Positions 3,671-36,800 of a DNA stretch of 64,000 nucleotides are shown piece after piece. Position numbers and translations under genes: made by a program. Source of the stretch: a virus; UHGV virus genome UHGV-0212524. One strand, given 5' to 3'. The notes under the pieces were generated by a model, which was given only the letters and a program-made list of their open reading frames with translations, had not been told where the DNA came from and ran no database searches. Position 1 is the first letter of the stretch. Each line of letters starts with the position of its first letter.

Positions 3671-3714
3671 CCTACCGCCCGATTCTATGGGCGGTAGGTG
3701 TTTTATTTTTTTTT
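3671..3714 (+). terminator. rho-independent terminator
   Basis: CCTACCGCCC..GGGCGGTAGG hairpin followed by a 14-nt T-rich run. Confidence 0.7.
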
Positions 3715-3730: not shown

Positions 3731-4294
3731 GTGGCCACACCATACGTACCTGATTTGAGTCTGACCTCAGCAGAGCTAGTGGTCGCTTTAATCAATCACG
3801 ATAATGGGTTACAGCTTACGCTAAACGAAATACGTATTAGCGGGACCGTAACAAACTCATCTCCAACAACTTCGCGTCGTAACACCATTACCGAAATCAG
3901 TAAAATCAGAAAACCAGATGGTGCGTCTGTTGTGGTTTATTACGACAGACTCGACGCAGATGAAGTATTAACGTATGAACCCATTCTGATTTCGTTAGAC
4001 GGTACTGAAGACAACGTTCGTGACATTCTTAGTGTTGTAAATGAATTCTGCGGAACGAACTTACAACCCGAGGATTTACGTGCTTCAGATATCACTTTAG
4101 GTAACGATCCCATTTCCGTTAACGTTGCCGACGATTCTCCTGCGTGGATGAACGCGTTTATGGTGACGTTGTTTGATACAACCGAACGGGCATTAGCAAA
4201 CGAAGAAGATGCAATCTTCTGTATTGGTGACAATGCCGTTCTTACATTCGAGGTTACAGATGGCGACAGCACTGAAGAAGACGAGACTCCATGA
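3731..4294 (+). CDS. hypothetical protein, PDLSLTS paralog family (upstream flank of adhesin module)
   Basis: 187 aa; N-terminus ...PDLSLTSAELVVALINHD... and YYDRL / CGTNLQPEDL segments paralogous to 13858..14370. Confidence 0.6.
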   Translation: MATPYVPDLSLTSAELVVALINHDNGLQLTLNEIRISGTVTNSSPTTSRRNTITEISKIRKPDGASVVVYYDRLDADEVLTYEPILISLDGTEDNVRDILSVVNEFCGTNLQPEDLRASDITLGNDPISVNVADDSPAWMNAFMVTLFDTTERALANEEDAIFCIGDNAVLTFEVTDGDSTEEDETP

Positions 4295-4721
4295 GCTCGA
4301 AAGCTACGCAGGCACACCGCAGGGCGGGGTACTGCTGTATAGCAAAGACAATAAAGAATATAAAATTGATGTTGATAAGTTAGCCCCGGTTGCGACAGTC
4401 ACCACGGTTAACGGTTCGAATAATGCCGCCACGTTGGATTTCAATACCAGCACTGACATTATTCTGGTGTTAAACGATCCCACTACTACGGTGACGTTCG
4501 CAGCCCTTACTAACGTTGCGGAAAATACCCGTTTCGAAGTAATGCTAACGTTTAAGCAGGGAACAGGGGCGAATAAAGTAACCTGGCCTGAAAACGTTAA
4601 GTGGCCTCACGGTGCAAAACCGGTTTTATCCTACACGGCAAATGCGGAAGACACTCTGTCGCTTTATACCCTTGACGGGGGTGCCACTTGGAAAGGTTCT
4701 CTTCTTGCAGCGGGTTACTAA
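4260..4721 (+). CDS. short fibre-like protein sharing N-terminal anchor motif with the long tail fiber
   Basis: ATG at 4260 with GAGG RBS; N-terminal MATALKKTRLHELESYAGTPQGGVLLYSKDNKEYKI matches N-terminus of 7806..12272. Confidence 0.55.
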   Translation: MATALKKTRLHELESYAGTPQGGVLLYSKDNKEYKIDVDKLAPVATVTTVNGSNNAATLDFNTSTDIILVLNDPTTTVTFAALTNVAENTRFEVMLTFKQGTGANKVTWPENVKWPHGAKPVLSYTANAEDTLSLYTLDGGATWKGSLLAAGY

Positions 4722-7700
4722 ATGAGAAAACATTTTCAGCGTCACGCGATTAGCTACGCGTTATCGTTAGCTTACGGTCACCAATCCTTCGTTACCCGGA
4801 ATACGGGAACGACTAACGACGCACATATCGATCATTACATTCAAAACGAAGAAGGTGTTCTGTCGAATAACCGTCATTTCATCGCTGATACCATGGCGGA
4901 ATACCAACCGAACGGTGACGCAACGACCGAGGGTCAGTCGTTACACATTATCGGTTATTGCCACATGTATATCGCAACAAAAGACGAAAGATGGTTAGAT
5001 GCTGCGAAACACGCCTGGGATGCGTACAACACGTACTTCTACGCCGGACAGCCTATTCCGACAACACCCCAGCGTCGGATTTGTAACTGGTTAGTAAACG
5101 GGAAAGAACCGGTATTAGCACACTATCCTATTCACCCTACGGAACCTACCAACGGCGGGTATAAATGTGTTCCTGTAAGGTTTACAAATGGCCAATGTAA
5201 GATACCGCACGGTGCACCTTTCTGGGGAGAGTATTTGGATATCTGTACGTTTGCATATCGTGGCCACCCTGCCTGGGCCGCGATTAACGCAGATGTACAG
5301 ATTATCAAGGAAGACAAAGAAGGGTCGATTAATTGGGAAGACGTTTTAACTCACGTTATTACTAATCCTGATAAGCCTTACGAAAGCACAGCTTGGGTCG
5401 ATTGGCCAACACTGCTAAATAATACTACAGGTTACACCCCGCTTTGGGGCGGCTCTGCAACAAAAGCTCCTAAACACGACGTTGACTGGATAATTGCCTG
5501 GACGGGTAACAAAATCCAGGATGGTGAAATTATTGAGACGGGATTAGCAGACGCTGATAAAGGTACCGTACAGTTAAAAGACACACAGTTAAACGGTGTC
5601 TATTTAATTAACTACGCGGTAAAACTTCCTGTCGAACACGGCGGTTACGAATTTAAACGTAATGAGCCGTGGCACAACCGTCCGGTCCACACACCGTTCT
5701 TAGGGTCGAAAAACCAATACGGTAACGCCGCTGATGCTGAACTGTGGTTTATCGACGCCTGTTATTTGCTGTGGCGAATCACAGGTGAAGAGAAATACAA
5801 ACAAGCATTAGACTGTGCTTTCTACACCGCACATGAGTACACGTATATTGATGCGACAGATAAATTCTTCCGTCGTTCTACCGCTGCGGATACACCGTTT
5901 ACTGACGGTATTTCGTACGATTTCGATTACCCAGATACCGTAAGTGCCACCTACGGCCGTGATGAGAATGGAGACATTACCATCCACGTGCCTGAAGCGG
6001 CGCAGCACTTTATGGAGCAAAAAGCGGTTAGGTTCAGGATTAACAAAGACTCTAAACTACGTGTCACGTACGGTGGAGTTTGTAAGAATGGCGATCCTGT
6101 CTACTGTAAAGTGATGGTGAACATTAACCCTGCGAAAGCTGATACCGAGGAGGTAAACTGGTACGGTTTAACCTTACCTCGGTCTACGGTAAATACCGTT
6201 AAACAGTACGATGTTGACTTAGGCCAACTTTCCCGTATTACCACCCCAGAAGGGGGAGACTACCTGATAGCTGAAGCCCGTGCGTGTTCGGACTACGGTG
6301 GTTGTACGTGGGAAGAACGTTTTGAGGATAGCATTTACGATGGTCGCGCGGGTACCGTGGTAGAAGCGGAATTTCCTGATGACAGTGCCGGGTTTATTAT
6401 CGGGTTTTGGTTAACCGCTGAAGAGAAGGTAAAACCCGTTTCTATTGTTTACCGTGCAGACGCAGATTTTAACTTGCGTTTAGTCGACAGTGATAACTGG
6501 CTTTGGTGGTGGATGTTACCCAACACAAACAACGAATGGCGTCAGGTAACGTTGAATCCGGATGAAGCCACACTTTCCGGTTATCAGCCAGACCACACAG
6601 ACGCTGACCCTAAACCTTCAGCACCGAATTTCGATAAGGTGGATCAGGTCACGATTCTTCCTGACTCCACAGTTGACCATGCACACTTTGCTTACTATTG
6701 TGTTAACGATGTCCCACCGGTCTTTAATAAAGACGATGGTTATATTTTAACCTTCCGTATTGCCTTACGCGGTGGTGCAGAGTTTGATGCAAAGGTGGGT
6801 GATTGTACGATTGTAGATTACCGATTGGATTCGTTAGCGTACTGTCCGGGTACGATACCGTTCACGAACAGCTACTTAGAAGGTTCAGAACAGTTAGGTG
6901 CTTGGCACGGGATGCCTTATCCAGGTTATCAGTATCCGTTTATGTACAGTATCCACAAAGACGACCGGTATAAGTTGTGGTTAGATAACCAGATTCAATT
7001 CCTGCACGATTCGCAGTTGGCTTACCAACAGCAAATTGGGGAATTAGGACCTGGTTGCGCAGCTTATATCTGGAACCGTTGGGACAACTACAGCTACGGA
7101 GAAGCGGATACCTGGACGACGTTCCATTGGGGTGATGACCATCCTTGGGCAGGGTATCAGCCTCGCGCGTTTCATGCTGCGTGTCGGTGTTGGTACGAAC
7201 TGAAACTGCGAGGTAAAGACGTTCCCGAGGCGTTAACAACCTATATTGACAACTGGGTGAATTGGCTAGGTGGGTTTGTGGATCGGTTTAACGGCCACAC
7301 TCCTAACGAGTTCCCTACAGCACCGGATAAAGCTGTTTGGGTGGAAAACGACTTCACCGCACATATGTGTGGGTTGTGGTTAGCAGGGTGTTGCTGGGCA
7401 TTACTCGCCGGTGCAACGAATCCGAACTACGAAAAAGTGGTTAATGCGGCAATTAAGGAGTTAGGTGAAGGGTTTACGATTACCTCAATTCCGAATAAGC
7501 CGATTAATGGAGCGTGGTCTCCAGCCGCTCGAGAGTCTTCTGATAACGGAATGGCTTATGGGTTCTACACTGGAGAAGTGCTACGTGCGTTAGGTCTCTA
7601 CGTTACTTATAAAACCTACGGACCCAACGCTAATATTTATCGTGACTTAGCGATTACTGACCACAGTCAAGCGGTCTTAGACGTTACGTTAACGATAGAA

Positions 7701-7727
7701 GATGTTCCATTAAAACCGGAGCAATAA
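4722..7727 (+). CDS. large structural protein (1001 aa), function unknown
   Basis: ATG directly abuts upstream stop; Trp/Tyr-rich; sits between fibre-anchor gene and long tail fiber; terminator follows. Confidence 0.6.
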   Translation: MRKHFQRHAISYALSLAYGHQSFVTRNTGTTNDAHIDHYIQNEEGVLSNNRHFIADTMAEYQPNGDATTEGQSLHIIGYCHMYIATKDERWLDAAKHAWDAYNTYFYAGQPIPTTPQRRICNWLVNGKEPVLAHYPIHPTEPTNGGYKCVPVRFTNGQCKIPHGAPFWGEYLDICTFAYRGHPAWAAINADVQIIKEDKEGSINWEDVLTHVITNPDKPYESTAWVDWPTLLNNTTGYTPLWGGSATKAPKHDVDWIIAWTGNKIQDGEIIETGLADADKGTVQLKDTQLNGVYLINYAVKLPVEHGGYEFKRNEPWHNRPVHTPFLGSKNQYGNAADAELWFIDACYLLWRITGEEKYKQALDCAFYTAHEYTYIDATDKFFRRSTAADTPFTDGISYDFDYPDTVSATYGRDENGDITIHVPEAAQHFMEQKAVRFRINKDSKLRVTYGGVCKNGDPVYCKVMVNINPAKADTEEVNWYGLTLPRSTVNTVKQYDVDLGQLSRITTPEGGDYLIAEARACSDYGGCTWEERFEDSIYDGRAGTVVEAEFPDDSAGFIIGFWLTAEEKVKPVSIVYRADADFNLRLVDSDNWLWWWMLPNTNNEWRQVTLNPDEATLSGYQPDHTDADPKPSAPNFDKVDQVTILPDSTVDHAHFAYYCVNDVPPVFNKDDGYILTFRIALRGGAEFDAKVGDCTIVDYRLDSLAYCPGTIPFTNSYLEGSEQLGAWHGMPYPGYQYPFMYSIHKDDRYKLWLDNQIQFLHDSQLAYQQQIGELGPGCAAYIWNRWDNYSYGEADTWTTFHWGDDHPWAGYQPRAFHAACRCWYELKLRGKDVPEALTTYIDNWVNWLGGFVDRFNGHTPNEFPTAPDKAVWVENDFTAHMCGLWLAGCCWALLAGATNPNYEKVVNAAIKELGEGFTITSIPNKPINGAWSPAARESSDNGMAYGFYTGEVLRALGLYVTYKTYGPNANIYRDLAITDHSQAVLDVTLTIEDVPLKPEQ

Positions 7728-7748
7728 TAACCCGCTTATAAAAATGTT

Positions 7749-7780
7749 GGGGGAGGTGCTTTACCTCCCCCAGATCTTTT
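7749..7780 (+). terminator. hairpin terminator
   Basis: GGGGGAGGT..ACCTCCCCC hairpin after the 1001-aa gene; weak T tract. Confidence 0.55.
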
Positions 7781-7805
7781 AGCTCCCGATAGAGAATTAA
7801 ATATC

Positions 7806-10800
7806 ATGGCTAAAGCGGTAAAGAAAATTCGTTTACACGATTTACGTCCATACACCGGGGATATAGGTGAAGGTGTTTTACTTTTTTCCAAGGATGAGAA
7901 AGATTATAAGTTACCTGTCCGTGAGATCGTTGCAGATATTGACACCGTACGTAATGCGGTGTCTGATGCACAAACAGCAGCAACACAATCACAAGAAGCT
8001 GCAACTCAGGCTACACAAGCAAAGAATTTAGCAGAAACAGCAAAACAACAAACTGACACCGTTGCGGCTACAGTTGCTCAACAAGCGCAAACTGTAACCG
8101 AAAAAGCAACTGAAGTCGGTACAAAACACACTGAAGTGTTAGCCGCGAAAACGGCGGTAGATACCCAGGTTGTGTCCGTTAATGAGAAAGCGCAAGCGGT
8201 AGCGGCAAGCGAGGCCAACGTCACACAAGCGGTGACTACCGTTACGAAGAAAGCAGAAACTGTTGCCACACAAGCCGGTCAAGTCGAACAGTCGCTTACG
8301 GCAGTTAACGAAGCTGTCGCGTCGGTAGAGTCGTCAAAAGCCGCTGTAGAAGCTACAGCAACGCAAGTTACCACAGACAAAGAAACCGCAGAGAATGCGG
8401 CAACGCGTTCTGAGGCAGCGGCTAAGCGTGCAGAAGAAATCGCTGCAAAAGGTAACGTTGATGCAACAACGACCAGTAAAGGTATCGTTAGACTTAATAA
8501 TACCTTAAGCAGTGACTCTGTTACTGAAGCGGCTACGCCGTCAACGGTTAAGCAGTTAAATGAAGATTTGCAGTTAAAAGCAAACCGTCACAACCCAACT
8601 TTTACCGGTGTGGTAAAAGCACCAACACCTGCTTCGGATTCTAACGACACGAGCGTCTCAACGACCGCATGGGTACGGCAAGCGATTGCTGAATTAGTGG
8701 ACTCTTCACCCGAGACGTTAGATACGTTATCAGAAATTGCAGCTGCGTTAGGAAACGATCCTAACTTTGCGACAACGATGACGAACCAACTCGCGGGTAA
8801 ACAGCCGTTAAGTCCGTTACTGACAGCGATTGCCGCAGTCACCACCGCTGCAAACAAACTCCCTTACTTTACCGGTAGTAATCAGGTAGGGTTAGCGGAT
8901 TTCACCTCGACTGCGCGTGATTTGTTAGCGAAAGGGTCGACGGCAGATATCATTAACTTCCTGGGTTTGAAAACCACTGTTGATAAAGCTGCGGGTGCTA
9001 TGCAACGCAGTTCTAACGGTGCCGATATTCCAGATAAAGTCACCTTCGCGAAGAACATCGGGTTGTCAGCAGAGACGTATTTGAAGTTTAATGGGGAAAT
9101 GGCAGTAGATGCGGATATCAACACCTTCGGCCCAGTCGAAGCGTTTATGGGTGTCTGGTCTAAAGCCACGTCTACGAATGCAACAATTGCAAAGAACTTC
9201 CCGGAAGACGATGCAGTTGGTTACTTAGAGGTATTCAAAGCAGGTAACTACAGCGGAAGCCAACGTTTTACCATACGTAACGGTAACGTCTATACTCGTC
9301 GTTTAACAGGAACCTGGAACGGTACTAACGGCCCTTGGTCGCCCTGGAGAATGACAACTACCGCGAACCGTCCGCTCTCCACCACTATTGACCTTAACAC
9401 TTTAGGTGGTGTTGAACACATGGGTCAGTGGCGTAACTCCAGTTCTTCTCTTGCGACGTTCGATCGTCATTATCCCGAAGAAGGTGGTAATGCTCAAGGT
9501 GTATTAGAAGTAATGGAAGGTGGTCTCTACGGACGTATGCAACGTTACACCACTCGTCGTGGTACGATGTATGTCCGTGGGTTGACTGCGACTTGGGATG
9601 CGTCTAATCCACAGTGGGAAGATTGGATTCAAGTTGGGTATCAGGTAGACGGTGCCTACTATAAGGGTAGCTTTAATGACTTAACTAAACCTGGTCGTTT
9701 TAGTGTTACCGGTGAGGCTACTGACGGTCCGTTAACAGACTCTGCTGGCGCAACCTTGTTAGGTGTTTGCGAAGTTACCTTACGCTTAGACGGTTCAGGC
9801 GTTGAACAAAATTATACCACATACGGTACAGGCGCAACTACGAAAGGTCGCAAGTTCCAACGAATTCGTACAGGAAACGCCTGGAGCGAATGGCGAGAGA
9901 TTTTCACATCCTATTCACTCCCGTTGGCTTTAGGGATCGGTGGGGTTGCTGCCAAGGTCGATCCGTTAGACTGGCAAACCTTCGATTTCGTTCCTGGCCA
10001 GATGATAAGTACACCGTTGAATACCATGAAAAACATTCCTGCGGGAATGGATTGGGGTGTTATTGACGGTAACTTGGTCAGTATTCTCGTAGGGGCGTCA
10101 GAGGACACCGGTACTGGTCGGAGTATGTTGGTCTGGCGCGGTACAGTGTCTACTGCTAACTATCGCTTCTTTGCAGTACGTATCGCTGGCGAGAAGGGTA
10201 GCCGTACGATTACGCCACGACAGATGCCTGTGTTGAACGCAGCCCACACTTGGGCAGAGAAACAGACCTTTGCAAAAGGGTTAGCAGGTGAGTTAACCGG
10301 CAATGCTTCAACCGCCACTAAGCTCCAGACTGCGCGTAGAATTGGCGGGGTCGCTTTCGACGGCAGCGGCGACGTTAACCTCCCAGGTGTTAACCAACAA
10401 GGTAATCAAAACACCACAGGTAACGCCGCGACAGCCACTAAACTTCAAACCGCCAGAAATATTAACGGTGTGAAATTCGATGGCTCTGGAGACATCAATA
10501 TCAACACCTTGGTAGGTCGTGGACGGGTTACCGCTCTGACCGGGTCGAACAAGGGTACACCTGGTATCCAGATGTACGAAGTTTACAATAACGGTTATCC
10601 AACCGCCTATGGTAACTTGCTGCACTTAGGTGGTGCTAATGCGCTAGGCGAAGGTGAGTTGTTAATTGGTTGGTCGGGCACGAGTGGTGCACACGCACCC
10701 GTTTATATTCGTAGTCGACGCGATACGGCTGATGCGCCGTGGTCAGATTGGGCACAAGTTTATACTGCCCGTGACAGTATTCCTGGTGTAAATACCACCG

Positions 10801-12272
10801 GTAATCAGGATACTACTGGCAATGCCGCTACCGCGACGAAACTGAAAACCGCTCGCAGAATCGGCGGCGTTACCTTTGACGGTACTGGGGATATCAATTT
10901 ACCGGGGGTTAACCAGCAAGGCAACCAGAATACGACAGGTAATGCAGCGACCGCTACTAAGTTACAAACAGCACGTAAGATCGGCGGTGTTAACTTTGAC
11001 GGTTCGCAAGACATTAGTCTGCCCGGTGTAAACCAGACGGGTAATCAGTCGACTACCGGAAACGCAGCCACGGCAACAAAGTTGCAGACAGCGCGTACCA
11101 TTAACGGTATCGCATTTGACGGTACTAGAAATATATCGTTAGGGCCTGCCGATATAGGTTGTCCGGCTTCGCCCACTGGTTGGTTGGAGACTGGTAAAGA
11201 CGGCGGCGCAATAACTACAGCACAGCTAGTGACGTTATTGCAAAATAACGGCGCGTTTACCACAAAATCATGGGTTGCTCGCTGTGCATGGGCTTATGCT
11301 GCTAGTGCGTCCATACCGAACAGCGAGACGGGTTGTGGTGTTATTCCGTTAGCTGGGGCTGTTATAGAAGTGATTAGTAACAGCGCAAACAACTACACGA
11401 TCCGTATAACGACCCCCACAACGACGAGCGTCGGCGGCGCACTCACTAATGCGGAGTTTATCTACGTAAATAACGGTGATGCTTACTCACCAGGTTGGCG
11501 TCGCGCTTACAATACGAAAAACAAGCCAACTGCTGCGGATGTTGGGGCGTTGCCATTATCTGGCGGTCAATTGAATGGTGTGCTGACGCTGCAAAATGTG
11601 AGTCAGCCTCTCAAGACGCCGGGTGGCGGCATTCTGGCAAATGATGGAAATTTATACATCAATAAGTCAGGATTTGCAGGCTGGATTGATGCGCTGTTTT
11701 TGAAGAACAGCGGCGGTACTGTCACTGGCGATTTAACGGTTAACGGTAAACTGGTTACGAAGTATGCTGATTTCCGAATCGCTTACGGTAGCTGCGGTTT
11801 CATTTTACGTAATGATGGTGCCAATACCTATTTCTTAGTAACCGACTCCGGACAAGCCGCAACGGGTTCCTGGAACGGACTACGTCCGTTGTATTTTAAT
11901 AACTCTAACGGTCAAGTAACCTTTGGTCATAACATTTCTAGCAACGGTAACGGTTCGTTTAACGACGTACAGATTCGTTCTGACCGTCGCAACAAACGTA
12001 ATCTGGTGAAGCTGGATAAGGCTTTGGATCGGTTAGAAGCGCTTACCGGCTATCTGTACGAGGTTCAACATCCAGACGACGGTTGGAACACTTCGGTAGG
12101 TCTAATTGCTCAAGACGCATTAGAAGCGTTACCTGAACTTGTGTCTGAGGATGATGATGCCATTTCAGGCGAAAAACGTTTACGTCTAAACTACAATGGC
12201 GTTATTGCGCTGTTAGTAGAGGGTATGAAAGCGTTGCGTCAAGAGGTTAACGAAATTAAAGGAAGATCCTAA
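7806..12272 (+). CDS. long tail fiber protein with C-terminal intramolecular chaperone (peptidase S74-like) domain
   Basis: 1488 aa; A/T/Q-rich shaft; five tandem ~40-aa fibre repeats (TGNAATATKLQTAR.IGGV.FDGSGD); C-terminal SDRRNK (Ser-Lys dyad spacing) + LDKALDRLEAL. Confidence 0.85.
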   Translation: MAKAVKKIRLHDLRPYTGDIGEGVLLFSKDEKDYKLPVREIVADIDTVRNAVSDAQTAATQSQEAATQATQAKNLAETAKQQTDTVAATVAQQAQTVTEKATEVGTKHTEVLAAKTAVDTQVVSVNEKAQAVAASEANVTQAVTTVTKKAETVATQAGQVEQSLTAVNEAVASVESSKAAVEATATQVTTDKETAENAATRSEAAAKRAEEIAAKGNVDATTTSKGIVRLNNTLSSDSVTEAATPSTVKQLNEDLQLKANRHNPTFTGVVKAPTPASDSNDTSVSTTAWVRQAIAELVDSSPETLDTLSEIAAALGNDPNFATTMTNQLAGKQPLSPLLTAIAAVTTAANKLPYFTGSNQVGLADFTSTARDLLAKGSTADIINFLGLKTTVDKAAGAMQRSSNGADIPDKVTFAKNIGLSAETYLKFNGEMAVDADINTFGPVEAFMGVWSKATSTNATIAKNFPEDDAVGYLEVFKAGNYSGSQRFTIRNGNVYTRRLTGTWNGTNGPWSPWRMTTTANRPLSTTIDLNTLGGVEHMGQWRNSSSSLATFDRHYPEEGGNAQGVLEVMEGGLYGRMQRYTTRRGTMYVRGLTATWDASNPQWEDWIQVGYQVDGAYYKGSFNDLTKPGRFSVTGEATDGPLTDSAGATLLGVCEVTLRLDGSGVEQNYTTYGTGATTKGRKFQRIRTGNAWSEWREIFTSYSLPLALGIGGVAAKVDPLDWQTFDFVPGQMISTPLNTMKNIPAGMDWGVIDGNLVSILVGASEDTGTGRSMLVWRGTVSTANYRFFAVRIAGEKGSRTITPRQMPVLNAAHTWAEKQTFAKGLAGELTGNASTATKLQTARRIGGVAFDGSGDVNLPGVNQQGNQNTTGNAATATKLQTARNINGVKFDGSGDININTLVGRGRVTALTGSNKGTPGIQMYEVYNNGYPTAYGNLLHLGGANALGEGELLIGWSGTSGAHAPVYIRSRRDTADAPWSDWAQVYTARDSIPGVNTTGNQDTTGNAATATKLKTARRIGGVTFDGTGDINLPGVNQQGNQNTTGNAATATKLQTARKIGGVNFDGSQDISLPGVNQTGNQSTTGNAATATKLQTARTINGIAFDGTRNISLGPADIGCPASPTGWLETGKDGGAITTAQLVTLLQNNGAFTTKSWVARCAWAYAASASIPNSETGCGVIPLAGAVIEVISNSANNYTIRITTPTTTSVGGALTNAEFIYVNNGDAYSPGWRRAYNTKNKPTAADVGALPLSGGQLNGVLTLQNVSQPLKTPGGGILANDGNLYINKSGFAGWIDALFLKNSGGTVTGDLTVNGKLVTKYADFRIAYGSCGFILRNDGANTYFLVTDSGQAATGSWNGLRPLYFNNSNGQVTFGHNISSNGNGSFNDVQIRSDRRNKRNLVKLDKALDRLEALTGYLYEVQHPDDGWNTSVGLIAQDALEALPELVSEDDDAISGEKRLRLNYNGVIALLVEGMKALRQEVNEIKGRS
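10296..11160 (+). repeat. in-frame tandem coding repeats (phage tail-fibre repeat units) inside the long tail fiber gene
   Basis: Five degenerate ~120-nt units each encoding TGNAATATKL(Q/K)TAR.I(G/N)G(V/I).FDG(S/T)(G/Q/R)(D/N). Confidence 0.8.
11982..12269 (+). other. predicted autoproteolytic intramolecular chaperone domain (C-terminal 96 aa of tail fiber)
   Basis: Begins at D following Ser in IRS|DRRNK; Ser...Lys spacing of 5 as in S74 chaperone domains; location read from sequence. Confidence 0.6.
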
Positions 12273-13054
12273 TGGCAGTTGTCGGCGTAGGTGGTTGGAT
12301 TGGTTCTTCAGCAAAAGCTGAAACTGGTAACGATTGGATGTCTGGCGCGATGCGCACACTTGGTGTGCCGGTTCCAGGCTGGATGTCGCAATTGGCGGGA
12401 AAATCAAAAGAGGTTCAGTATTCGATCGGGGCTAATCACAATTACAATAAAGATACGCTTATTAACTATTTACGTTCTATAGGCTCTAATGCTGTCGTTG
12501 TGACCATTACAGGGGATTTAGTGTCTTATAGTAGCGGGGTTCCTTGTTTAGAATTCCCTAGCAATCTTCCAAATTCGTATATTACACTCATCATCAATCC
12601 TGGGGTTACAGTATACGGCAGAGGAGGCAACGGCGGTTCTAACTCACCAGGCGGTGCAGGTGGAACCGCAATACAGAACGGAATAGGAAACAGACTGCGT
12701 ATAACCAACCGTGGCGCTATTGCCGGAGGCGGTGGCGGCGGTGGCGGCGGTAACAGGGGTAGACTAATATTTGGTGGTGGCGGTGGTCGCCCATTCGGTG
12801 CTGGTGGGTCTTCCTCACATATGAGTTCCGGTGCAGCTGCTGGTACTATTTCCGCTCCTGGTAGAGGATCTGTTGGTGAGGGGTCTCTTAGTGCATATAC
12901 AGGCGGTTCGGGTGGTAATGTCGGTGCTGCTGGAGGAAGATGTAATACTCATGGTAACGGTACAGAATATAACGGCGGAGCCGCTGGTGCAGCCGTTAGA
13001 GGTAATGCGCCAAGATGGGACGCAGTAGGTGCAATATATGGTTCACGTGTTTAA
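12272..13054 (+). CDS. 38: tail fiber tip adhesin, gp38-like (T2/S16 type) with glycine-rich motifs
   Basis: 260 aa; N-terminus MAVVGVGGWIGSSAKAETGNDWMS and ITGDLVSYS as recalled for T2-type gp38; C-terminal half has multiple poly-Gly motifs. Confidence 0.7.
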   Translation: MAVVGVGGWIGSSAKAETGNDWMSGAMRTLGVPVPGWMSQLAGKSKEVQYSIGANHNYNKDTLINYLRSIGSNAVVVTITGDLVSYSSGVPCLEFPSNLPNSYITLIINPGVTVYGRGGNGGSNSPGGAGGTAIQNGIGNRLRITNRGAIAGGGGGGGGGNRGRLIFGGGGGRPFGAGGSSSHMSSGAAAGTISAPGRGSVGEGSLSAYTGGSGGNVGAAGGRCNTHGNGTEYNGGAAGAAVRGNAPRWDAVGAIYGSRV

Positions 13055-13114: not shown

Positions 13115-13618
13115 ATGGGGGTAGCATCTGGATGGGTCGGTTCTTCGGCCAAGAACGAAACGGGCGAACAATGGATGAGTGCTGCTGGTAGTAAATTAGG
13201 ATTGGGTAGACCTTTTATGATGAGTCAAATGGTGGGCCGATCTCTTGGCTGTAAAATCGCAACTGCTGCATATAGCGATTCAATGGCTAAATTTTGGGGT
13301 GCGGTGGGACCAAACTGGCCGTTAGCGCAGAAAAATAAAGGGACTATTCAGAATCCTGGTAGCTGCGGCGTAGGCACACTTATTGGTATCCAACTACTAT
13401 TGATCACATTGGCTGCTGATGCAAAACCAAGTTTAGCGGTCTATTTACAAGGTGGGAGAGCTTCTAACATCACCGTAAATCTAGGCGGCAACACTTGTAC
13501 GGTAGCCTATCAGCAGGTTATTAATGGTCAACATTATTACTGGACCTCTAACATTAGCACTGCTTTCCAAAACGTGATGAAATCAACCGGCACATTAAGA
13601 GATTTGAAGATTAGTTAA
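13115..13618 (+). CDS. gp38 N-domain paralog with unrelated, non-glycine-rich C-terminal domain
   Basis: 167 aa; N-terminus MGVASGWVGSSAKNETGEQWMSAAG parallels 12272..13054; C-terminal half lacks Gly-rich motifs. Confidence 0.6.
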   Translation: MGVASGWVGSSAKNETGEQWMSAAGSKLGLGRPFMMSQMVGRSLGCKIATAAYSDSMAKFWGAVGPNWPLAQKNKGTIQNPGSCGVGTLIGIQLLLITLAADAKPSLAVYLQGGRASNITVNLGGNTCTVAYQQVINGQHYYWTSNISTAFQNVMKSTGTLRDLKIS

Positions 13619-13639
13619 TAATTTTCAAGCGAATGTGCT

Positions 13640-13900
13640 TGAAAACGTAATCGGGGGGGGGGGTGAAATGTTTTTAGCCACCATTTTATGTCTCCCCAAG
13701 CATAGGAGGTAACCATACGTGGAACATTTCACGCCTGTTTGGGCGTTAACTTAAGTAAAAAACGATCACTCGAATCTGCTATAAAAAGCAATCGGGGGGT
13801 GGTGAAATGTTTATAGACAACTTTTTATGTCTCTCCAATCATAGGAGGTAACCATACGTGGAACAATTCACGCCTGATTTGTCGTTAACTTCACTTAACA
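13640..13900 (+). repeat. ~110-bp tandem duplication (two diverged copies) ahead of 13858..14370, with homopolymeric G tracts
   Basis: 13651..13757 and 13791..13897 align (ATCGGGGGG..GTGAAATGTTT..CATAGGAGGTAACCATACGTGGAAC..); first copy has G11 run and a start remnant that terminates after 11 codons. Confidence 0.8.
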
Positions 13901-14370
13901 TGGTTATTTCACTGGTTAACCATGACCTCCAGCTCGACCTGCAAGAGAACGAGGTTGAAGTCAGCGACGTAAAGACCAGTAACGAAATGGATCGTGACAC
14001 CACTGCTGTTGTAAAGATAAAACGTCCTGGTAACAGAACGTTACAAATCTATTACAACCGTTTAACCGCAGAGCGGTGGTTAAACCAGCAACCTATTCTG
14101 GTAAAGGTTTCCGGTAATGGTTTTACCGCACACGATCTAATCGACGGAATTAACGCGGCTTGCGGTTGTAATTTACAACCCGACGATCTTACCGACGAAT
14201 CATTTACCGTAGGGAAAGACGCTGTAACGTTACAGGTTTCACCCAACTCGTTAGGTTATAAAGGCCAATTCTCCGTTCTGGTTTTCGGTAACGACGAAGA
14301 AGCCGCTGTAGTAAAAGACAACGATTTAATCGTTACCGCAGATAATCGCGTCTTAACCTTTGGTGGTTAA
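13858..14370 (+). CDS. hypothetical protein, PDLSLTS paralog family (downstream flank of adhesin module)
   Basis: 170 aa; GTG start with AGGAGG RBS; N-terminus and YYNRL / CGCNLQPDDL paralogous to 3731..4294. Confidence 0.6.
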   Translation: MEQFTPDLSLTSLNMVISLVNHDLQLDLQENEVEVSDVKTSNEMDRDTTAVVKIKRPGNRTLQIYYNRLTAERWLNQQPILVKVSGNGFTAHDLIDGINAACGCNLQPDDLTDESFTVGKDAVTLQVSPNSLGYKGQFSVLVFGNDEEAAVVKDNDLIVTADNRVLTFGG

Positions 14371-14529
14371 TAGTGGCTGAACTGGTAGGAAAGGTACGCA
14401 TTCGCGAGCTACCGACACTTTCAGAAGACATCACTGGTGTGGTGGTGTTAGCGTCTATTGCCTGTTAAGATCGTTATTACGCATCTTACAGGGACAACGC
14501 TTTCTCAGAACGGAATGAAATAAATATTA

Positions 14530-14573
14530 GGTAGTAGGGGCTAAGCCCCTACTACCTTTCTTTTTTATTTTTT
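14530..14573 (+). terminator. rho-independent terminator
   Basis: GTAGTAGGGG-CTAA-GCCCCTACTAC hairpin + TTTCTTTTTTATTTTTT. Confidence 0.75.
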
Positions 14574-14574
14574 C

Positions 14575-14619
14575 TCAGATATATATTACCTAGGGGAGAG
14601 CGAAATTTACATTCGCTCT
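14575..14619 (+). promoter_or_regulatory. conserved promoter-like motif with stem-loop (copy 1 of 4)
   Basis: TCAGATATATATTACCTAGG followed by inverted repeat AGAGCGAA..TTCGCTCT; directly after a terminator. Confidence 0.5.
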
Positions 14620-14744
14620 ATTAGTTATAGCCGAAAGGAGGATTAGTTCTATCACCCGTATTATCTGTTCTGGTGAATTGGGTGAAGATAAAAAATCGTG
14701 TTTGATAAATTAGTTGAAGACTACGTTAAGAAAGAGGGACAATT

Positions 14745-15188
14745 ATGAAACCAAATACTACTAACGGCATTATGTTACTTTGTGATTCTGAAACGTTAGC
14801 AAATCGTATTCGTGGTTTGATGCAAGTACGTTGGCAGCAAAAGGTTTGCGTGGACTATGCTGCACCGTTTGTTCACGTTACCTGGCTACCAGAAGCTAAC
14901 GATTTTAAAGAGAGTATAACCACGAGAAGAATTAAAGATTGGTTAATGGCAATCATTAACAAACGGATTACCGTTATCAATTTCCAGTTGTTCGGTAGTA
15001 AAGAAGAACACGATACCTTAAAACGCTGTTTAAGGGGATTGGATCTTGCCTTTTCTGTTCGTGGAAACTGTTACACAGCGTTCTTCATCGGTTCTCTTGA
15101 GTTATTTCAGGGAACATTAAACATTCAACTAAAAGAAGATTACGGGATCGTAAATAAGATTGATTTCGAATTCCCAGCAATGATTTAA
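14745..15188 (+). CDS. hypothetical protein
   Basis: 147-aa ORF; AGAGGG RBS; first gene after terminator and promoter-like motif. Confidence 0.55.
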   Translation: MKPNTTNGIMLLCDSETLANRIRGLMQVRWQQKVCVDYAAPFVHVTWLPEANDFKESITTRRIKDWLMAIINKRITVINFQLFGSKEEHDTLKRCLRGLDLAFSVRGNCYTAFFIGSLELFQGTLNIQLKEDYGIVNKIDFEFPAMI

Positions 15189-15199
15189 GGAGGAGTAGC

Positions 15200-16042
15200 A
15201 TGTTTCAGTTCGAACTCACCGAAGAAGAAAAGGTTATCAACAAGTTTAAAATTTCCCCTATCCCTACTGAGGATCAAATTAAAGAAATCACTGAGCTACA
15301 AAACACGTACACGTTTTACTATAAAGTTAAATCAGAAGCGTTTAACATTTTCTGGGTAGAAGGCGAGGTCGATTTCCCTAACAAGCTCATTAGTGCGGTT
15401 ATGGATATTTTAGTACGGGCTGTTGAGACGCCTAAAGATCCAGAAATTCCGGATCAAATGACTTGTAGGCTAAAAGACAAGCCAACTGCGAAAGACGTCG
15501 CTTACTTCACAGACGAGATTCCACTTACCCCCAAACAGGCAGGTAAAATCGGTTCGATATTATACCTTTTTTACAACGACAAATTCACTTATCTGGTTGA
15601 AAACAACGTGCTTAAAGTGAACTATGAAGGTGCTACTTATCGCGCTTTTTTAAATAACCTATTGAATGACATAGAGAAAGAAAATATTCTGCTATTTACA
15701 GTTGAGGATATTAGCGAGGCCGATGCTGCCGAGTTTATTCGCGCAGTGAAAGATGAACACGAACACCATCTATTTATAATTTATCAAAGCAAATATCTTG
15801 AAGGTAACCTGAATCTCTTGATCCCAAACAAACCATGGGTTCTTAAAGTTCTGGAACCCCTTGCGCAGAAAATTAAGAGAGATGGTGAATATTTTAAACA
15901 CGTTCTCAAGAAATACGAAAAAGAAATCAGCGAACGACTTTCACGCCACTTTTTTGGACAGCTAGAAGCTCACGTTGGCGAATACGCCCAGCTGTTTGAT
16001 AGATTTTGTAACGAGATGAGAGAAGTTCGGAATCTTAAATAA
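15200..16042 (+). CDS. hypothetical protein (EAD..EF.R motif family)
   Basis: 280 aa; AGGAGG RBS; VEDISEADAAEFIRAVKDEHEH resembles repeats in 20001..21167. Confidence 0.55.
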   Translation: MFQFELTEEEKVINKFKISPIPTEDQIKEITELQNTYTFYYKVKSEAFNIFWVEGEVDFPNKLISAVMDILVRAVETPKDPEIPDQMTCRLKDKPTAKDVAYFTDEIPLTPKQAGKIGSILYLFYNDKFTYLVENNVLKVNYEGATYRAFLNNLLNDIEKENILLFTVEDISEADAAEFIRAVKDEHEHHLFIIYQSKYLEGNLNLLIPNKPWVLKVLEPLAQKIKRDGEYFKHVLKKYEKEISERLSRHFFGQLEAHVGEYAQLFDRFCNEMREVRNLK

Positions 16043-16084
16043 CGAAGGCTTAATTACCCCACTATTTACCTAAAGGAGCATTAA

Positions 16085-16600
16085 ATGTCTGTAACAATCA
16101 ACATGAATCTTTATACCAAACGTGAACGTCAAATCTTGGCTAATCAGCCAGGTGTTACTACGATTGACGGTAAACCTATCGACCCATTAAAAGTCGTTGT
16201 CGCACACAACTGTTTCGAGAAAGACTGGGACATCATGTATTTCCGTTGCCGTTCTGTCGCCAACGCACTTACCCAGCTCTCGAATTATCATCCTGGCCCA
16301 GTATTAAAAGACTGGGTTTGGTTAGTCCCTAAAACACCTTCAGCGATTGAGTATCCGTCGGGTATGGTCTATATTCGTCCTGTCGCTTATCCAGAACGTT
16401 TAAAAGAATATCTGGAGGTTATCTGGGACCGACCTCGTAAAGAGCTGGTGACGATTATCCGTTTACTTCAAATGTGCGATATCCCCAATGTTTCGAATCT
16501 GAAACTTACGTCTCGCGATATTAACCAGGCTTACTGGGAACTAGAGTGGACAGAACCGAAATTCGAAAACACTAACCGTATTTTCTTGCACCGGGGGTAA
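16085..16600 (+). CDS. hypothetical protein
   Basis: 171-aa ORF with AAGGAG RBS. Confidence 0.55.
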   Translation: MSVTINMNLYTKRERQILANQPGVTTIDGKPIDPLKVVVAHNCFEKDWDIMYFRCRSVANALTQLSNYHPGPVLKDWVWLVPKTPSAIEYPSGMVYIRPVAYPERLKEYLEVIWDRPRKELVTIIRLLQMCDIPNVSNLKLTSRDINQAYWELEWTEPKFENTNRIFLHRG

Positions 16601-16602
16601 AA

Positions 16603-16884
16603 ATGTTAGATTGGTTGTTGGGTTTAATTAACTCACGTCAACAGGAGCTTTATAAAGAAAACACGCGGTTACGGCAGCAGCTTAGTAACAATCGTCAAAC
16701 CAAACGACAGTTAATTCGGATGGTAAAACAACAGGCGCGCTGTATACGCGATATCGATTATCAGTATCACCGTCTGAATACCTTAGACCCAACAACAAAA
16801 GCTTTAGGCAGTACGATTGGACACGCACGGAAAGTCAGTCACGACGCGTTAGTTCGAATCGACACAATAGAAGAGAAGCTGTGA
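16603..16884 (+). CDS. small coiled-coil protein
   Basis: 93 aa; heptad-like Q/R/L-rich N-terminus; start 3 nt after upstream stop. Confidence 0.5.
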   Translation: MLDWLLGLINSRQQELYKENTRLRQQLSNNRQTKRQLIRMVKQQARCIRDIDYQYHRLNTLDPTTKALGSTIGHARKVSHDALVRIDTIEEKL

Positions 16885-16926
16885 TATAACCCCTCTCAGG
16901 AATTCCTGAGAGGGTGGAGTAACAAT

Positions 16927-17301
16927 ATGTCATTACTGTTATACAAATTCAGATGTTGGCTAGACACCTCGTTTAAAACCTGGGCTTGTGGTGAGAATGT
17001 CAGAACGATCGTTAAAGCAACAGACTGGTATACCGAAATTGTGGTACTCCCTGACGGTAAACTAATTAATGTTCAGGTACGCAATATCACCGTCAGGATA
17101 GGTCGTAAAGGCGGTGCTATTTTTCTTCCCGAACTCTATCTGGTTTCTGCATTGGAACTGAAAGCAGGACCGATGTTATTTGGTCGAACAGCGCAACACT
17201 ATTTCGATACGCTTATTAAACTTAGTAATAGTGTAAAGAAATTAGGTGAGTCGGTCCATAGATTTATTAAAGAAACTGAACGAACTACGGTGGAGATTTA
17301 A
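16927..17301 (+). CDS. hypothetical protein
   Basis: 124-aa ORF; GGAG RBS. Confidence 0.55.
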   Translation: MSLLLYKFRCWLDTSFKTWACGENVRTIVKATDWYTEIVVLPDGKLINVQVRNITVRIGRKGGAIFLPELYLVSALELKAGPMLFGRTAQHYFDTLIKLSNSVKKLGESVHRFIKETERTTVEI

Positions 17302-17304
17302 AAG

Positions 17305-17613
17305 ATGGAAAGTAAAATCACGAACACATCAGCACCTGAGAACATTGTCAACTATATTCTCAGTGGCGGATTGTTAGAAGACAATAAAGAAACGTGCGAT
17401 AAACTCGTTTCTCAACTACTGCCGATTCGTTCAGAATACTGCGAAGTCGTTATCTTGGGTTCTGAGTATTGCGTACGTTCTTACTGTCGTCGTTTCGAAG
17501 CCTTACGTGTTCCACGTACGTTAGGTGGCGTGATACTCTTAGTCTCTAACTTTCACAATGCACACGTTCGTGTTGCAACCTGGATTGCTAACGGTGGTAA
17601 CAATGGTTTTTAA
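17305..17613 (+). CDS. hypothetical Cys-containing small protein
   Basis: 102 aa; several Cys (CDK..CEVV..YCVRSYC). Confidence 0.5.
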   Translation: MESKITNTSAPENIVNYILSGGLLEDNKETCDKLVSQLLPIRSEYCEVVILGSEYCVRSYCRRFEALRVPRTLGGVILLVSNFHNAHVRVATWIANGGNNGF

Positions 17614-17911
17614 ATTGTTAGGTTTCGGAAAATGCAAAGAGTGTGCAAAGCACGAAGAATATATCAAGTTATTAGAAGAAACAGTTGAAACGCAAAAAGA
17701 ACTTATCTCTGAATACCGCGCGAAAACCGGTTCAGTGGAATATCTGACCATCCTTGTTTGTGCTATTGCTGAATTGGGTTGTGAGGGAAAATTACCTAAA
17801 GAAGAGATATTAAAATTATTAAAAGAAAAAACAGAGTTCTACCGTAAAGAAATTGATGATTATAAACGTGAAGTTATAAGAGCGAATTGGGAGGTTATTA
17901 ATGAAGCGTGA
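17603..17911 (+). CDS. hypothetical protein with N-terminal CxxC
   Basis: ATG at 17603 overlapping upstream gene end; KCKEC motif; Lys/Glu-rich. Confidence 0.45.
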   Translation: MVFKLLGFGKCKECAKHEEYIKLLEETVETQKELISEYRAKTGSVEYLTILVCAIAELGCEGKLPKEEILKLLKEKTEFYRKEIDDYKREVIRANWEVINEA

Positions 17912-33821: not shown

Positions 33822-36800
33822 TTAAGATGTAAACATAAGATTGAACTGGAGTTTGTCGATATCGCGAGTTTCCGCCGGATTCACGGCATCGTACGCGGTC
33901 GCTACGTAAACGGTTAGCGTACCGTTAGCGTAAGACGATTTCACCGGTGGGTTAGTTCCGGTCTGACCATCTCGGACAATGAGCGTAGGTTCACTCGGGA
34001 GATTGTCAAACTGACCCTTGACCGCTTTATACACCAAACCAGATTGCGCAGCCAGTTCAGTGTCCGTAAAGACAAAGAACGGTGTGTCGATATCAGCCTG
34101 CTTGACGATGGTGTTCGATTCAACGTCAATCAACTGTACCGCCCCAAACTTCGTACGATAACTTTCATACTCGTTCTTCGGAATAACGAACGTGACATGA
34201 ACACGAACCTCCTCGGCAGGTTTAAACCCACTGTGCTCTTTTTCCAGGTACTGGTTGGCGGTTAACGTTACCGTTTGTTCAGTCATCGTACCACCGGCCT
34301 GGTTTAATGCATACCGAGCTTCAACAATACCGGTTGGTGCAGCAAGTCGTAGTTTCAGAGCACGATTCGCCGTTCCTGGATTACCTGGCACCTGAACACG
34401 CAAACTCAATGCTAAGTAAGCATTCGTTCCGGTAGTCGGTTTCGTATACGCACCAATCCATTTCATGTTCGCAGACGCTGCCTGCATGTTCTCAGAAGCA
34501 GTGGCTGTCGCAATGTTAGCAGCTACCGCTTTCTGCCAGAATTGGTCAGCGCAGTTCTCATACGCTACCCTGGCCACGCTCTTATAACCCGAATACGTTT
34601 CCTGAATTGGTAACTTAGGACGCGTCGTAATGCCGGACAGTGAACCCCATTTCTGACCGTCAACATACCCTTCACCTTTCGACGCAGACGCCGTAGGTGC
34701 TTTAACGGGCTTGTTAACCAGTGTTAATAGAGGACCCGTCTTTCTGTCAAACGCTGCTGCTACATCGTGTTGGTCGATAATTGCTGCGTGGTCTTCCAGT
34801 TCTTTCACACGACCCAAACGTTTTACTTTGTCGATACTGATACCAGTAATACGGCTGGAATCGGTGGTTACTGTCCCAACGAACAGTCTTGTTGAGGTAT
34901 CGGCTAACTGCTCCAAACCGATGCGGTATTGCGCGGTAGAACCCGACACCTCAGCGTGCACGTAGAACGTCTGGTTAGCGTGATTGGATGGGAACTCACT
35001 GCTTAAATCCACAGACCACGTTGGGAGTGTGTAACTGCTGCTACCGAAATCTAATTTGACTTCTTCTGTCAAATACAGAATCCAACCTTCCGCTGTTTCC
35101 ACACCGGCAATAATAACCGCCTGACCTCCGGTTGAGAACGTCGTGTCGTTAACGAACTCTGCGGCTGTATACGCGTTACCTGAACAGAAAACACGGTCAG
35201 CTTTAGAGTAAATCAACGCCATCTTGTCCCAATCACCGGCACCCATATAGCACCCAGATTCTGGTCTATGTTCAGGGGCCATCTGCCGTAACTGTGATTT
35301 ACCTGCAACGCGTGTCCAACCTGAACCAGGGTCGAAGGTATATTTAGCAGCGTAGCCCAGGGCGTTTAAGTCCCCGATATTTCGGGTAGTTAACGTATAA
35401 GGTAACCAGATACCGAAGTTAGTTCCATCCGCAGATGCAAAAATAGGCTGCCCCACGCGCCTCGTTTTACCTCCCGCTCCCCCATTTAGTGACTGATAAC
35501 TTAAACCATAATCGAGGTCTAAGAACCAGTCCACCAACTTAAAGGTGGCTGAGTTGAAACGTAAGTAGCCGTTCTCTTTAGATGGGCTCACCATGAAGTA
35601 ATAGATGTCAAGAATTCGACGTCCGTTACTTGAGGTTTTCATGCACGAAACTTGCAACAAGTCAAATTCGCACACGGTGTTGATACCCAACATCCAAAGA
35701 GCAAACAATGCATTACCGGTTTGATGTGCAGCACTAATACGTTCGTTCGCGTAACCATTTGCTTGACCAGATGGCGCACCGTCAACGATCATCCGAATCA
35801 TTTTCTGCCGATCGGCTTCTTCTAGCGTTAAGCGTTCGGAAGACAATGCGAAGTTACCGTAGATGTTACGATACGGGAACGTTTCTGCTTTGGTCAAATA
35901 CCAGCCGTTCAACTGTCCATGACGCTCCTCAGGGATCATGCACGCAGCCATACAGCTAAGCTGCTCGTAAAGCGTTGGATCGACTTCACGACGGTTGTTG
36001 TTCGGACCGTACCCACTATACCCAGAAACATCGTAAGGTTTGTTCGGATCAACTTCCACTTCGATCGTGTAACGGTTACGAGGGTTCGATAACCAGACCT
36101 TATTCGAACCACCAATCCCTACTGGATAAGACAAACCGATGGTGTAAATGGAGCCACGGCCTTTATCCCAGGTAAACGTTCCTTCGCCCGAGGTGTTGTT
36201 TGGGTTATCGTAACGCAGATAATCGAAAAGCTCTCTGCCTTGTGTACTCTTAATAGAAACATTAGGCATTTGGTCCGCATCGGCAATTTGCCAACAGGAA
36301 AGCATCATTCCTGTACCGTTGGGTTTAGCATACGTCGCGAAACAACGGTTGTTTGCCTGGCCACCACCCCACTTACGATTGGTTCCTACAGTTGAACCAT
36401 CTGCGAACGAGAGTGTAGTAGTAGCATCAGCCTTGATGGGGAAGCGTTCGCGGCCTTCTAACGTAACCTTGCCCGTCAACGTATCGATTGTAAAACTTGT
36501 TGCCCATTGAAGGAAATTAATCGTCGTACCGTCGGCCGCTGCAAACCACACGGTAGGCATATGGTTCACACGAATCACGCTATCGCGCACAGCACACGCG
36601 TGGTTACATTCTGGACCGTGAACAAAGTTACGCCCGATCGTCCATTTAGCACGACCCTCCGGTGTGAGATATGTAAAGAATTGACCCGTTTGCGACTCTT
36701 CGGTTTTCTGACCAATACGCAAGCAGAGGTTATCTCCGAATTGTCCCATCTCGCCGGTTAGAGTTACACGTTCAAATTCTAACGTAGTGTTAGTAGACAA

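Follow-up and report, generated by a model that had tools for sequence, protein, structure and literature searches.

Gene organization of the locus

The 64-kb stretch of DNA analyzed here (64,000 nucleotides of virus genome UHGV-0212524, referred to as the window) belongs to an SPN3US-like nucleus-forming jumbo phage of the Chimalliviridae, related to Seoulvirus and Erskinevirus, and contains a cluster of tail genes in which a short N-terminal module, referred to as the anchor or plug, is shared by a 153-aa protein (B1), a 1488-aa long tail fibre (B2) and the remnant of a third protein (B3). The further proteins of the locus are labelled C1, a glycosidase-like tail protein encoded next to B1, and A1 and A2, two short DUF7941 proteins. 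Three terminator-like hairpins split the region into two units (Table 1), the first of which begins 3' of the hairpin at 3671-3698 and comprises A1, B1 and C1, with the final 35 nt of A1 overlapping the start of B1, while the second comprises B2, a gp38 adhesin, a second Gp38_N adhesin, A2 and the B3 remnant. In the cultured relatives SPN3US (gp122-gp124), Asesino (gp139-141), EC001, SPAsTU and Proteus phage 7, which were compared over loci of ~24 kb, the A1-B1-C1 triad is present alone, with one copy of the module, and the second unit is therefore an addition in the clade of the window.

Table 1. Coordinates of genes, protein domains and hairpins in the analyzed region of the window.
Feature	Coordinates	Strand	Remarks
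Terminator-like hairpin closing the upstream unit	3671..3698	+	11-bp stem, 8 GC pairs, then T-run
A1, short DUF7941 protein, 187 aa	3731..4294	+	orthologue of SPN3US gp122
B1, 153-aa adaptor (putative anchor and C-terminal beta-sandwich)	4260..4721	+	phrog_9017, E 4.7e-39; orthologue of SPN3US gp123
B1 anchor, residues 1-42, MATALKKTRLHELESYAGTPQGGVLLYSKDNKEYKIDVDKLA	4260..4385	+	52% identity to B2 N-terminus; profile E ~3e-22
B1 C-terminal domain, residues ~47-153	4398..4718	+	motif QGTGANKVTWP...PVLSY...DGGxTW
C1, 1001-aa glycosidase-like tail protein	4722..7727	+	phrog_2871 'tail protein', score 1457; orthologue of SPN3US gp124
Terminator-like hairpin between C1 and B2	7747..7773	+	kept in relatives, including those without B1-C1
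B2 anchor, residues 1-42, MAKAVKKIRLHDLRPYTGDIGEGVLLFSKDEKDYKLPVREIV	7806..7931	+	96-100% identical in seven relatives
B2, 1488-aa long tail fibre	7806..12272	+	Pfam Gp34_trimer 2e-16, Peptidase_S74 1.6e-10
gp38-type adhesin for the fibre tip	12272..13054	+	Pfam GP38 3.1e-69, Gp38_N 1.5e-15
Second adhesin, Gp38_N and a different C-terminal domain	13115..13618	+	Pfam Gp38_N 3.8e-20, phrog_1121
A2, second short DUF7941 protein, 170 aa	13858..14370	+	Pfam DUF7941 1e-16
B3 remnant, third anchor copy VAELVGKVRIRELPTLSEDITGVVVLAS, running into IAC-stop	14373..14468	+	profile E 1.8e-9
B3 out-of-frame C-terminal remnant (PVKIVITHLTGTTLSQNGMK-stop)	14461..14523	+	compared with the C-terminus of the 206-aa protein of L009
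Strong terminator-like hairpin ending the B2...B3 unit	14529..14557	+	13-bp stem, 8 GC pairs, then T-run

Megablast comparison of the window with SPN3US, Proteus phage 7, Asesino and similar isolates gave only stretches of ~71-75% identity. Closer relatives were found in metagenome and assembly data only, namely IMG/VR contigs (samples 3300045988 and 3300029126), a 114-kb contig of an Enterobacter ludwigii assembly, a Logan contig and an ENA contig; relatives are cited below by L-numbers. The Enterobacter ludwigii contig (L013; GCA_031875345.1, CP134655.1), being phage sequence in a bacterial assembly, hints at the host genus of the clade and at a cultured source for it.

The shared N-terminal module

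The sequence-only reading of the window had proposed that B1 and B2 share an N-terminal module and then diverge completely, and this was confirmed by BLASTP with both open reading frames (ORFs) at the positions given in Table 1. A single significant segment was detected, residues 1-50 of B1 against residues 1-48 of B2, with 26 of 50 positions identical (52%, E 9e-12); the next-best segment has an E-value of 0.66, hence the divergence is complete past residue ~45, and the shared segment spans about 42-48 residues. The start codon of B1 is the ATG at 4260 and not the upstream ATG at 4209, since all orthologues begin MAT..KK and a GAGG lies ~8 nt upstream. At the DNA level the 5' ends of the two genes are ~60% identical with many synonymous differences, so that the similarity must be old and kept at the protein level, and a recent duplication or gene conversion as the source of the likeness is ruled out.

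Searching all six frames of the window with a profile of the module revealed exactly three copies, at 4260, at 7806 and, truncated, at 14373-14468, the last of which had not been listed in the sequence-only reading. The mostly polar residues K7, R9, H11, L13, L26 and Y34 are conserved over the anchors of all three classes. The plug of B2 shares 49-54% identity with the B1 type and ~37% with the B3 type, which suggests that B2 may have originated by fusion of a B1-type 5' end to an imported enterobacterial fibre cassette.

Regarding the wider distribution of the module, only four short fragments were retrieved when 5.8 billion proteins were searched by word index with the anchor profile alone, and the distribution became visible only in an exhaustive search of 1.84 billion representative proteins. 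In this search the module was found solely at the extreme N-terminus (residue 1) of the proteins that carry it, which include adaptors of 153-156 aa, proteins of 188, 205, 259, 273, 706 and 710 aa, and the fibre of ~1490-1494 aa; truncated remnants of the module were matched as well. The 706-aa protein is a SASA-family esterase with a DUF6645 domain, encoded in the B3 slot of contig GCA_958329725.1, and the 710-aa protein is Ig/propeller-like. In relatives, the module heads at least seven different bodies, including the short adaptor, a 206-aa fibre, the SASA esterase and the long fibre. Matches to the anchor in Felixounavirus genomes (tblastn, E 0.1-1) fall in the C-terminus of a hypothetical protein of the early region and were judged to be due to chance.

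The anchor is the most conserved segment of the long fibre. In a comparison of seven B2 orthologues, identity is 96-100% over residues 1-45, falls to as low as 70% over residues 46-240 and is 15-35% over residues 1101-1488. Compared with the more distant orthologues of L008, L009 and L018, the anchor codons of B2 show 10-12 synonymous and no nonsynonymous differences, with 8 and 14 nonsynonymous differences in the next two blocks of 45 codons. A conserved N-terminus followed by an exchanged remainder, as found here, defines the generic class of anchor-based modular receptor-binding proteins (RBPs), for which anchor-branched schemes have also been described (Latka et al. 2019, PMC6872550). The suggestion in the sequence-only reading that the module is a common anchor is well supported by the unrelated bodies behind it, by the strong purifying selection and by a Phage_T7_tail domain at the same position in a podophage homologue of B1 (see below). 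The module thus behaves as a virion-attachment anchor on the N-termini of its proteins, and presumably docks physically to the baseplate.

The short protein B1 and the glycosidase-like protein C1

B1 is 47% identical to SPN3US gp123 over its full length. Its residues ~47-153 are predicted to form a beta-sandwich (predicted local distance difference test, pLDDT, ~80-88) with the near-invariant motif QGTGANKVTWP...PVLSY...D...W. C1 shares 71% identity with SPN3US gp124 and, along its whole length, 40-41% with Bas62_0025 and with gp21 of Vibrio G1, and has a weak GH76 match below the Pfam cut-off. It has no anchor of its own, being homologous to its counterparts in other phages from the first residues. 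With B1 stopping at 4721 and C1 starting at 4722, the pair has the arrangement of adapter or anchor-branched systems such as those of K1-5 gp37, G7C gp66 and KP32 gp37, in which a first protein carries the anchor and an adjacent RBP is anchor-less.

Small 'tail fiber' proteins ending in the C-terminal domain of B1 were detected in 521 phage records and homologues of C1 in 539, with near-identical genus distributions. In each of the groups inspected (SPN3US-like phages, Justusliebigvirus Bas62, the Vibrio autographivirus G1, which is a podophage, PMBT28, Rosemountvirus vB_SenM-1 and the 348-kb SHEFM2K) the gene of the C-domain protein lies directly upstream of a full-length C1 homologue with 40-71% identity from the first residues, and the N-terminal part of the C-domain protein is different in each of these six groups. 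In the B1 homologue of Vibrio G1, gp22, it is Pfam Phage_T7_tail, a classical tail-attachment domain.

The adaptor C-domain and a glycosidase-like protein of ~950-1000 aa together form a two-gene module, present in at least six unrelated phage groups. With identities of 28-76%, it is scattered over many genera of podo-, myo- and jumbo phages, examples being PMBT28, vB_SenM-1, SHEFM2K, Bas62, Vibrio G1 and Stenotrophomonas Philippe. The annotation varies between 'tail protein', 'lateral tail fiber with glycosidase domains' and 'tail formation protein GpI'.

Both orthologues were identified in purified SPN3US virions by proteomics, gp123 (16.5 kDa) with 5 unique peptides and an SC/M of 0.42, gp124 (113.7 kDa) with an SC/M of 0.64, and both are absent from the list of SPN3US head proteins (PMC5694885, Suppl. 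Table 1). In the literature found, gp123 and gp124 are named only as virion proteins without an assigned role. Since the C-domain co-travels with the anchor-less C1 under N-termini specific to each group, B1 is most plausibly an adaptor through which the enzyme C1 is plugged into the baseplate, and not a free decoy, the simplest reading being that its C-domain is the docking platform for C1 and its N-terminus a connector specific to the phage backbone.

An alternative raised in the sequence-only reading was that one of the two proteins acts as a competitor or regulator. With the module common to both, competition of B1 for the socket of the fibre is physically conceivable; a decoy, however, would need neither an invariant C-domain (QGTGANK..W..P..LSY..D..W) nor its constant association with C1 across unrelated phages, gp123 is about as abundant as gp124 in the virions of SPN3US, and that phage encodes, in the locus of ~24 kb examined, no other anchor protein with which it could compete. 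Absence of the short protein from virions, named in the sequence-only reading as part of the refuting observation, does not hold for the SPN3US orthologue, a non-head virion protein. A related possibility is that the shared N-terminus is a non-functional recombination scar. The closeness of the B2 anchor to the B1 type, described above, would fit an origin by duplication and fusion, but a scar would not accumulate synonymous changes while remaining free of nonsynonymous ones. Both alternatives, the decoy and the scar, are thus regarded as very improbable.

The long fibre B2 and its adhesins

B2 consists, in order, of the anchor, a coiled coil (residues ~38-233), a mosaic shaft, a Gp34_trimer domain and a Peptidase_S74 intramolecular chaperone. 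Residues 38-233 give SMC-like coiled-coil matches. In the shaft, residues 388-859 share 64% identity with P2 gpH and residues 248-1112 share 51% with the Goslar fibre, and segments similar to P1 S also occur. The Goslar fibre itself was ruled out as a carrier of the plug, its N-terminus being P2-H/P1-S-like.

Following the S74-ended fibre gene, as at T2-type gp37/gp38 tips, the adhesin at 12272-13054 combines Gp38_N with a glycine-rich GP38 domain and is 75-80% identical to gp38 of RB49, JSE and PaulHMueller (Krischvirus adhesins), and the adhesin at 13115-13618 shares 58-62% identity with the 'tail fiber adhesin' found in Stx phages and in a P1-like phage. The two tandem adhesins have in common a Gp38_N part of 40 residues, with unrelated receptor-binding parts, glycine-rich of T2/RB49 type in one and of Stx-phage type in the other, an arrangement implying either mixed or alternative tips. 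Judged by these similarities, B2 is a mosaic of P2, P1 and T-even elements, grafted with two gp38-type adhesins onto the plug.

The region upstream of B2 (7728-7805, with equivalents in L004-L018) is conserved, containing CCGCTTATAAAAA, a G/C hairpin and then GATCTTTTAGCTCCCGATAGAGAATTAAATATC ahead of the ATG, and persists even where B1-C1 are deleted. It may represent a terminator followed by a phage-specific late promoter; a scan for sigma-70 promoters gave no more sites than expected by chance, which is not relevant here because the phage uses its own RNA polymerases. In L013 the long-fibre gene is split into ORFs of 629 and 696 aa (13549-17863).

Gain and loss of cassettes

In the window an internal deletion removed most of the B3 gene and left an out-of-frame C-terminal scrap, and the following gene, of 283 aa, is mostly gone as well, with a further deletion remnant at ~14650-14748. 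The 31-aa ORF of the B3 remnant is found verbatim in nr as a hypothetical protein of 'MAG TPA Caudoviricetes'. An intact B3 gene of 206 aa was detected in L004, L008, L009, L013 and L014, while in L005 the B3 region has decayed further than in the window. All three cassettes (B1-C1, B2 and B3) are intact in L004, L013 and L014; in the window, L005 and L015 the first two are intact and B3 is decayed or absent; in L009 B1-C1 are deleted, leaving MTVRLKKIRLYELDAFTG... and the last codons of C1, with B2 and B3 intact; and in L018 B1-C1 are absent, B2 is intact and B3 is replaced by a plug-bearing SASA esterase. Every genome examined keeps at least one plug of B1 type, on either B1 or B2.

Thus, as expected for accessory host-recognition proteins that are mounted independently, each device appears to be dispensable on its own, a statement qualified by the fact that the viability of the metagenome-assembled genomes is not established. 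This bears on the possibility that the N-termini of the plug proteins bundle with one another in a hetero-oligomeric base at a single site of fibre attachment, so that B1-C1, B2 and B3 would form one branched organelle. At every docking site of phiKZ, several fibre paralogues with similar N-termini and different C-termini were fitted into a hetero-hexameric basal complex (PMC13250141), and the six residues conserved across the anchor classes would fit a common interface, possibly from plug to plug. Each of the five isolates compared, however, has one anchor gene in the loci examined, and genomes with B1 or B3 deleted keep intact ORFs for the other plug genes, therefore no partner appears to be obligatory; moreover, sequence similarity of the module to any phiKZ chain in the PDB was not detected. 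Bundling of this kind is considered unlikely, and independent mounting of each plug-bearing protein is preferred.

The DUF7941 neighbours and a possible socket of the plug

Both A1 and A2 match DUF7941 (PF25613) above the Pfam cut-off and have the fold of the N-terminal domain of phiKZ gp127; in A1 an N-terminal globular domain is followed by an acidic tail. A DUF7941 gene lies upstream of two of the three plug genes of the window (B1 and the B3 remnant), with A2 ending three bases before the latter, and A2 is located directly upstream of the third anchor gene in L004, L008, L009, L013, L014 and L018. B2, which follows C1 in the window, is without a DUF7941 gene of its own and neighbours A1 only in relatives lacking B1-C1, where it lies ~200 nt downstream of A1 (L018) or is separated from it by the B1 remnant (L009). 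A1 and A2 are therefore candidate sockets, or candidate intermediates, for the plug, given these positions. Direct binding of the plug to the A protein, with A-B pairs as 'socket-and-plug' cassettes, is possible but doubtful. If it were true, each added socket (A1, A2) would offer one more attachment site, either on the outer baseplate or on a DUF7941 filament network, where any plug-bearing cargo (adaptor and enzyme, long fibre or esterase) could be mounted; the DUF7941 system of the chimalliviruses would then be linked mechanistically to the evolution of host range and offer a handle for the engineering of jumbo phages. For groups studying chimallivirus baseplates by cryo-electron microscopy, the gp127-like DUF7941 protein is named here as a specific candidate for the socket.

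Alternatively, the module could be a recognition tag for the upstream DUF7941 protein acting as an assembly chaperone or an intermediate adaptor, for which the adjacency of the genes would speak. The A genes, however, are still intact where the adjoining B gene has been lost (A2 where B3 has decayed, A1 where B1 is deleted), and in Goslar this gene order recurs with a fibre whose N-terminus is unrelated. A likeness of the anchor to the linker or tail of DUF7941 proteins (VLCIGDDAVLTF against GVLLFSKDxKEYKL), which would make it a mimic of that segment, was rejected, hhalign giving a probability of 0.5% with the segments not aligned. A tag with this function is accordingly held to be improbable.

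In L008 (IMGVR_UViG_3300029126_000001, 6217-8151) the DUF7941 domain of A2 forms the C-terminal part of a 644-aa protein, the N-terminal ~470 residues of which are unannotated; the domain order is the reverse of that in the DUF7941-enzyme fusions of Goslar, and the next gene is still plug bearing. Elsewhere in the window, three giant ORFs are encoded on the minus strand, at 33822-39008 (1728 aa), 39103-43287 (1394 aa) and 43298-47620 (1440 aa), for which no Pfam or PDB sequence match was obtained. Their size and number suggest a correspondence with SPN3US gp168-170 ('paralog family C', candidates for baseplate or tail-fibre proteins), and they too are candidates for docking the plug.

A probable virion-attachment plug for exchangeable cassettes

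The reading of the module as an anchor and of B1 as an adaptor draws on the homology and modular distribution of the N-termini, on the purifying selection, on the joint inheritance of C-domain and C1, and on the detection of orthologues of B1 and C1 in SPN3US virions. It is likely that the module is a lineage-specific virion-attachment plug of SPN3US-like chimalliviruses, by which exchangeable host-recognition cassettes are mounted at the periphery of the baseplate. In the proposed arrangement each plug-bearing protein would be mounted there through its plug. The first cassette would consist of the adaptor B1, whose C-terminal beta-sandwich would hold the anchor-less C1 encoded next downstream; the second would be the long mosaic fibre B2, its tip bearing one of the two gp38-type adhesins; and the third would be the 206-aa short fibre B3, or the SASA esterase in one relative, destroyed by deletion in the window. 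Several host-recognition devices would thus share one standard connector, with cassettes being gained, swapped and lost. The socket could be the phiKZ gp127-like DUF7941 protein encoded upstream or another protein of the outer baseplate.

Several observations weigh against this arrangement. The module itself has no match in Pfam, NCBIfam or the PDB, and in the AlphaFold2 model of the B1 monomer the anchor is disordered (pLDDT 30-43) with two short strands; searching the PDB with the anchor profile gave no phage chain at E <= 10, the sole 'hit' being a chance beta-hairpin in Elongin C, and sequence searches of the PDB with B1, C1 and A1 gave no meaningful match. The contact between B1 and C1 is read from the linkage of their genes, and the likeness of the C-domain to the fold of branching domains is moderate, the fold itself being common. 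Regarding the socket, SPN3US gp122, the orthologue of A1, was not detected by proteomics in wild-type virions, and most DUF7941 paralogues of SPN3US are found in tailless (head) particles. In Goslar, the short DUF7941 gene gp91 lies upstream of the fibre gene gp90, whose product has a different N-terminus, so that the adjacency of A and B genes is not specific to this anchor.

Comparison with known systems

To our knowledge, the attachment of RBPs in SPN3US-like nucleus-forming jumbo phages is essentially uncharted. A connector conserved at the N-terminus, combined with receptor-binding cargo that can be exchanged, is a textbook principle of phage RBPs, a picture that is extended here and not overturned. 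New are the 42-residue module, which as many as three cassettes employ within a single SPN3US-like clade, the grafting of a T-even/P2/P1-type set of fibre and adhesins onto a chimallivirus, and the proposed link to a gp127-like neighbour. Also useful may be the reading of a small 'tail fiber' protein as the adaptor of a widely mobile tail glycosidase. From these points, concrete rules may be drawn by which the host range of such phages could be predicted and possibly re-engineered.

The closest parallel to B1-C1 is provided by the gp37 adapters of SP6, K1-5 and K1E and the anchor-branched RBPs of Klebsiella phages, in which a small protein with an N-terminal anchor and without an enzymatic domain is likewise adjacent to a large, anchor-less enzymatic RBP, and in which modular exchange and truncated remnants also occur (PMC6872550); in the 2044-307w type the first RBP is reduced to an anchor and a branching fragment (Latka et al. 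2019, PMC6872550). In contrast to these systems, the plug described here is ~42 aa long without similarity to T7 gp17, the docking domain of B1 belongs to a distinct and widely mobile family (QGTGANK motif) with moderate fold likeness to T4gp10-like/TSP4 XD, and the virion is that of a chimallivirus with a giant star-shaped baseplate. The N-terminal domain of T7 gp17 (Phage_T7_tail) matches the plug in position and in logical role, and in Vibrio G1 it is fused to a B1-type C-domain, but it is unrelated in sequence, about three times longer, and docks at the interface of podophage adaptor and nozzle; while the G1 homologue matches Phage_T7_tail (PF03906), no Pfam match to this family was detected in the N-terminus of B1 or B2.

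Within the same virus family, phiKZ gp131, gp133, gp134 and gp135 have a common N-terminal attachment segment with unrelated C-termini and dock at the outer peripheral baseplate (PMC13250141). No homology to the plug was detected in the phiKZ chains of the PDB, the deposited coverage of gp131-type segments being unchecked. The phiKZ segments are larger, form a six-helix bundle and assemble as hetero-hexamers (PMC13250141), whereas each plug-bearing gene here can be absent and co-assembly is therefore not required. Regarding the distal end of the long fibre, B2 resembles the long tail fibres of T2/S16 type in ending with Gp34_trimer and Peptidase_S74 followed by gp38 adhesin genes, while its proximal end is not gp34/gp36/gp37-like, consisting instead of the chimallivirus plug and a coiled coil, and two alternative adhesins are encoded. 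Lastly, A1 and A2 are, as in Goslar, short DUF7941 proteins of the gp23/gp91 type, and in Goslar too a short DUF7941 gene adjoins a fibre gene. A 'DUF7941 fibre cloud' has been proposed for that phage (bioRxiv 10.64898/2026.04.21.720040), and this likeness concerns the neighbour gene, not the plug; the related gp127 of phiKZ is located in the outer peripheral baseplate.

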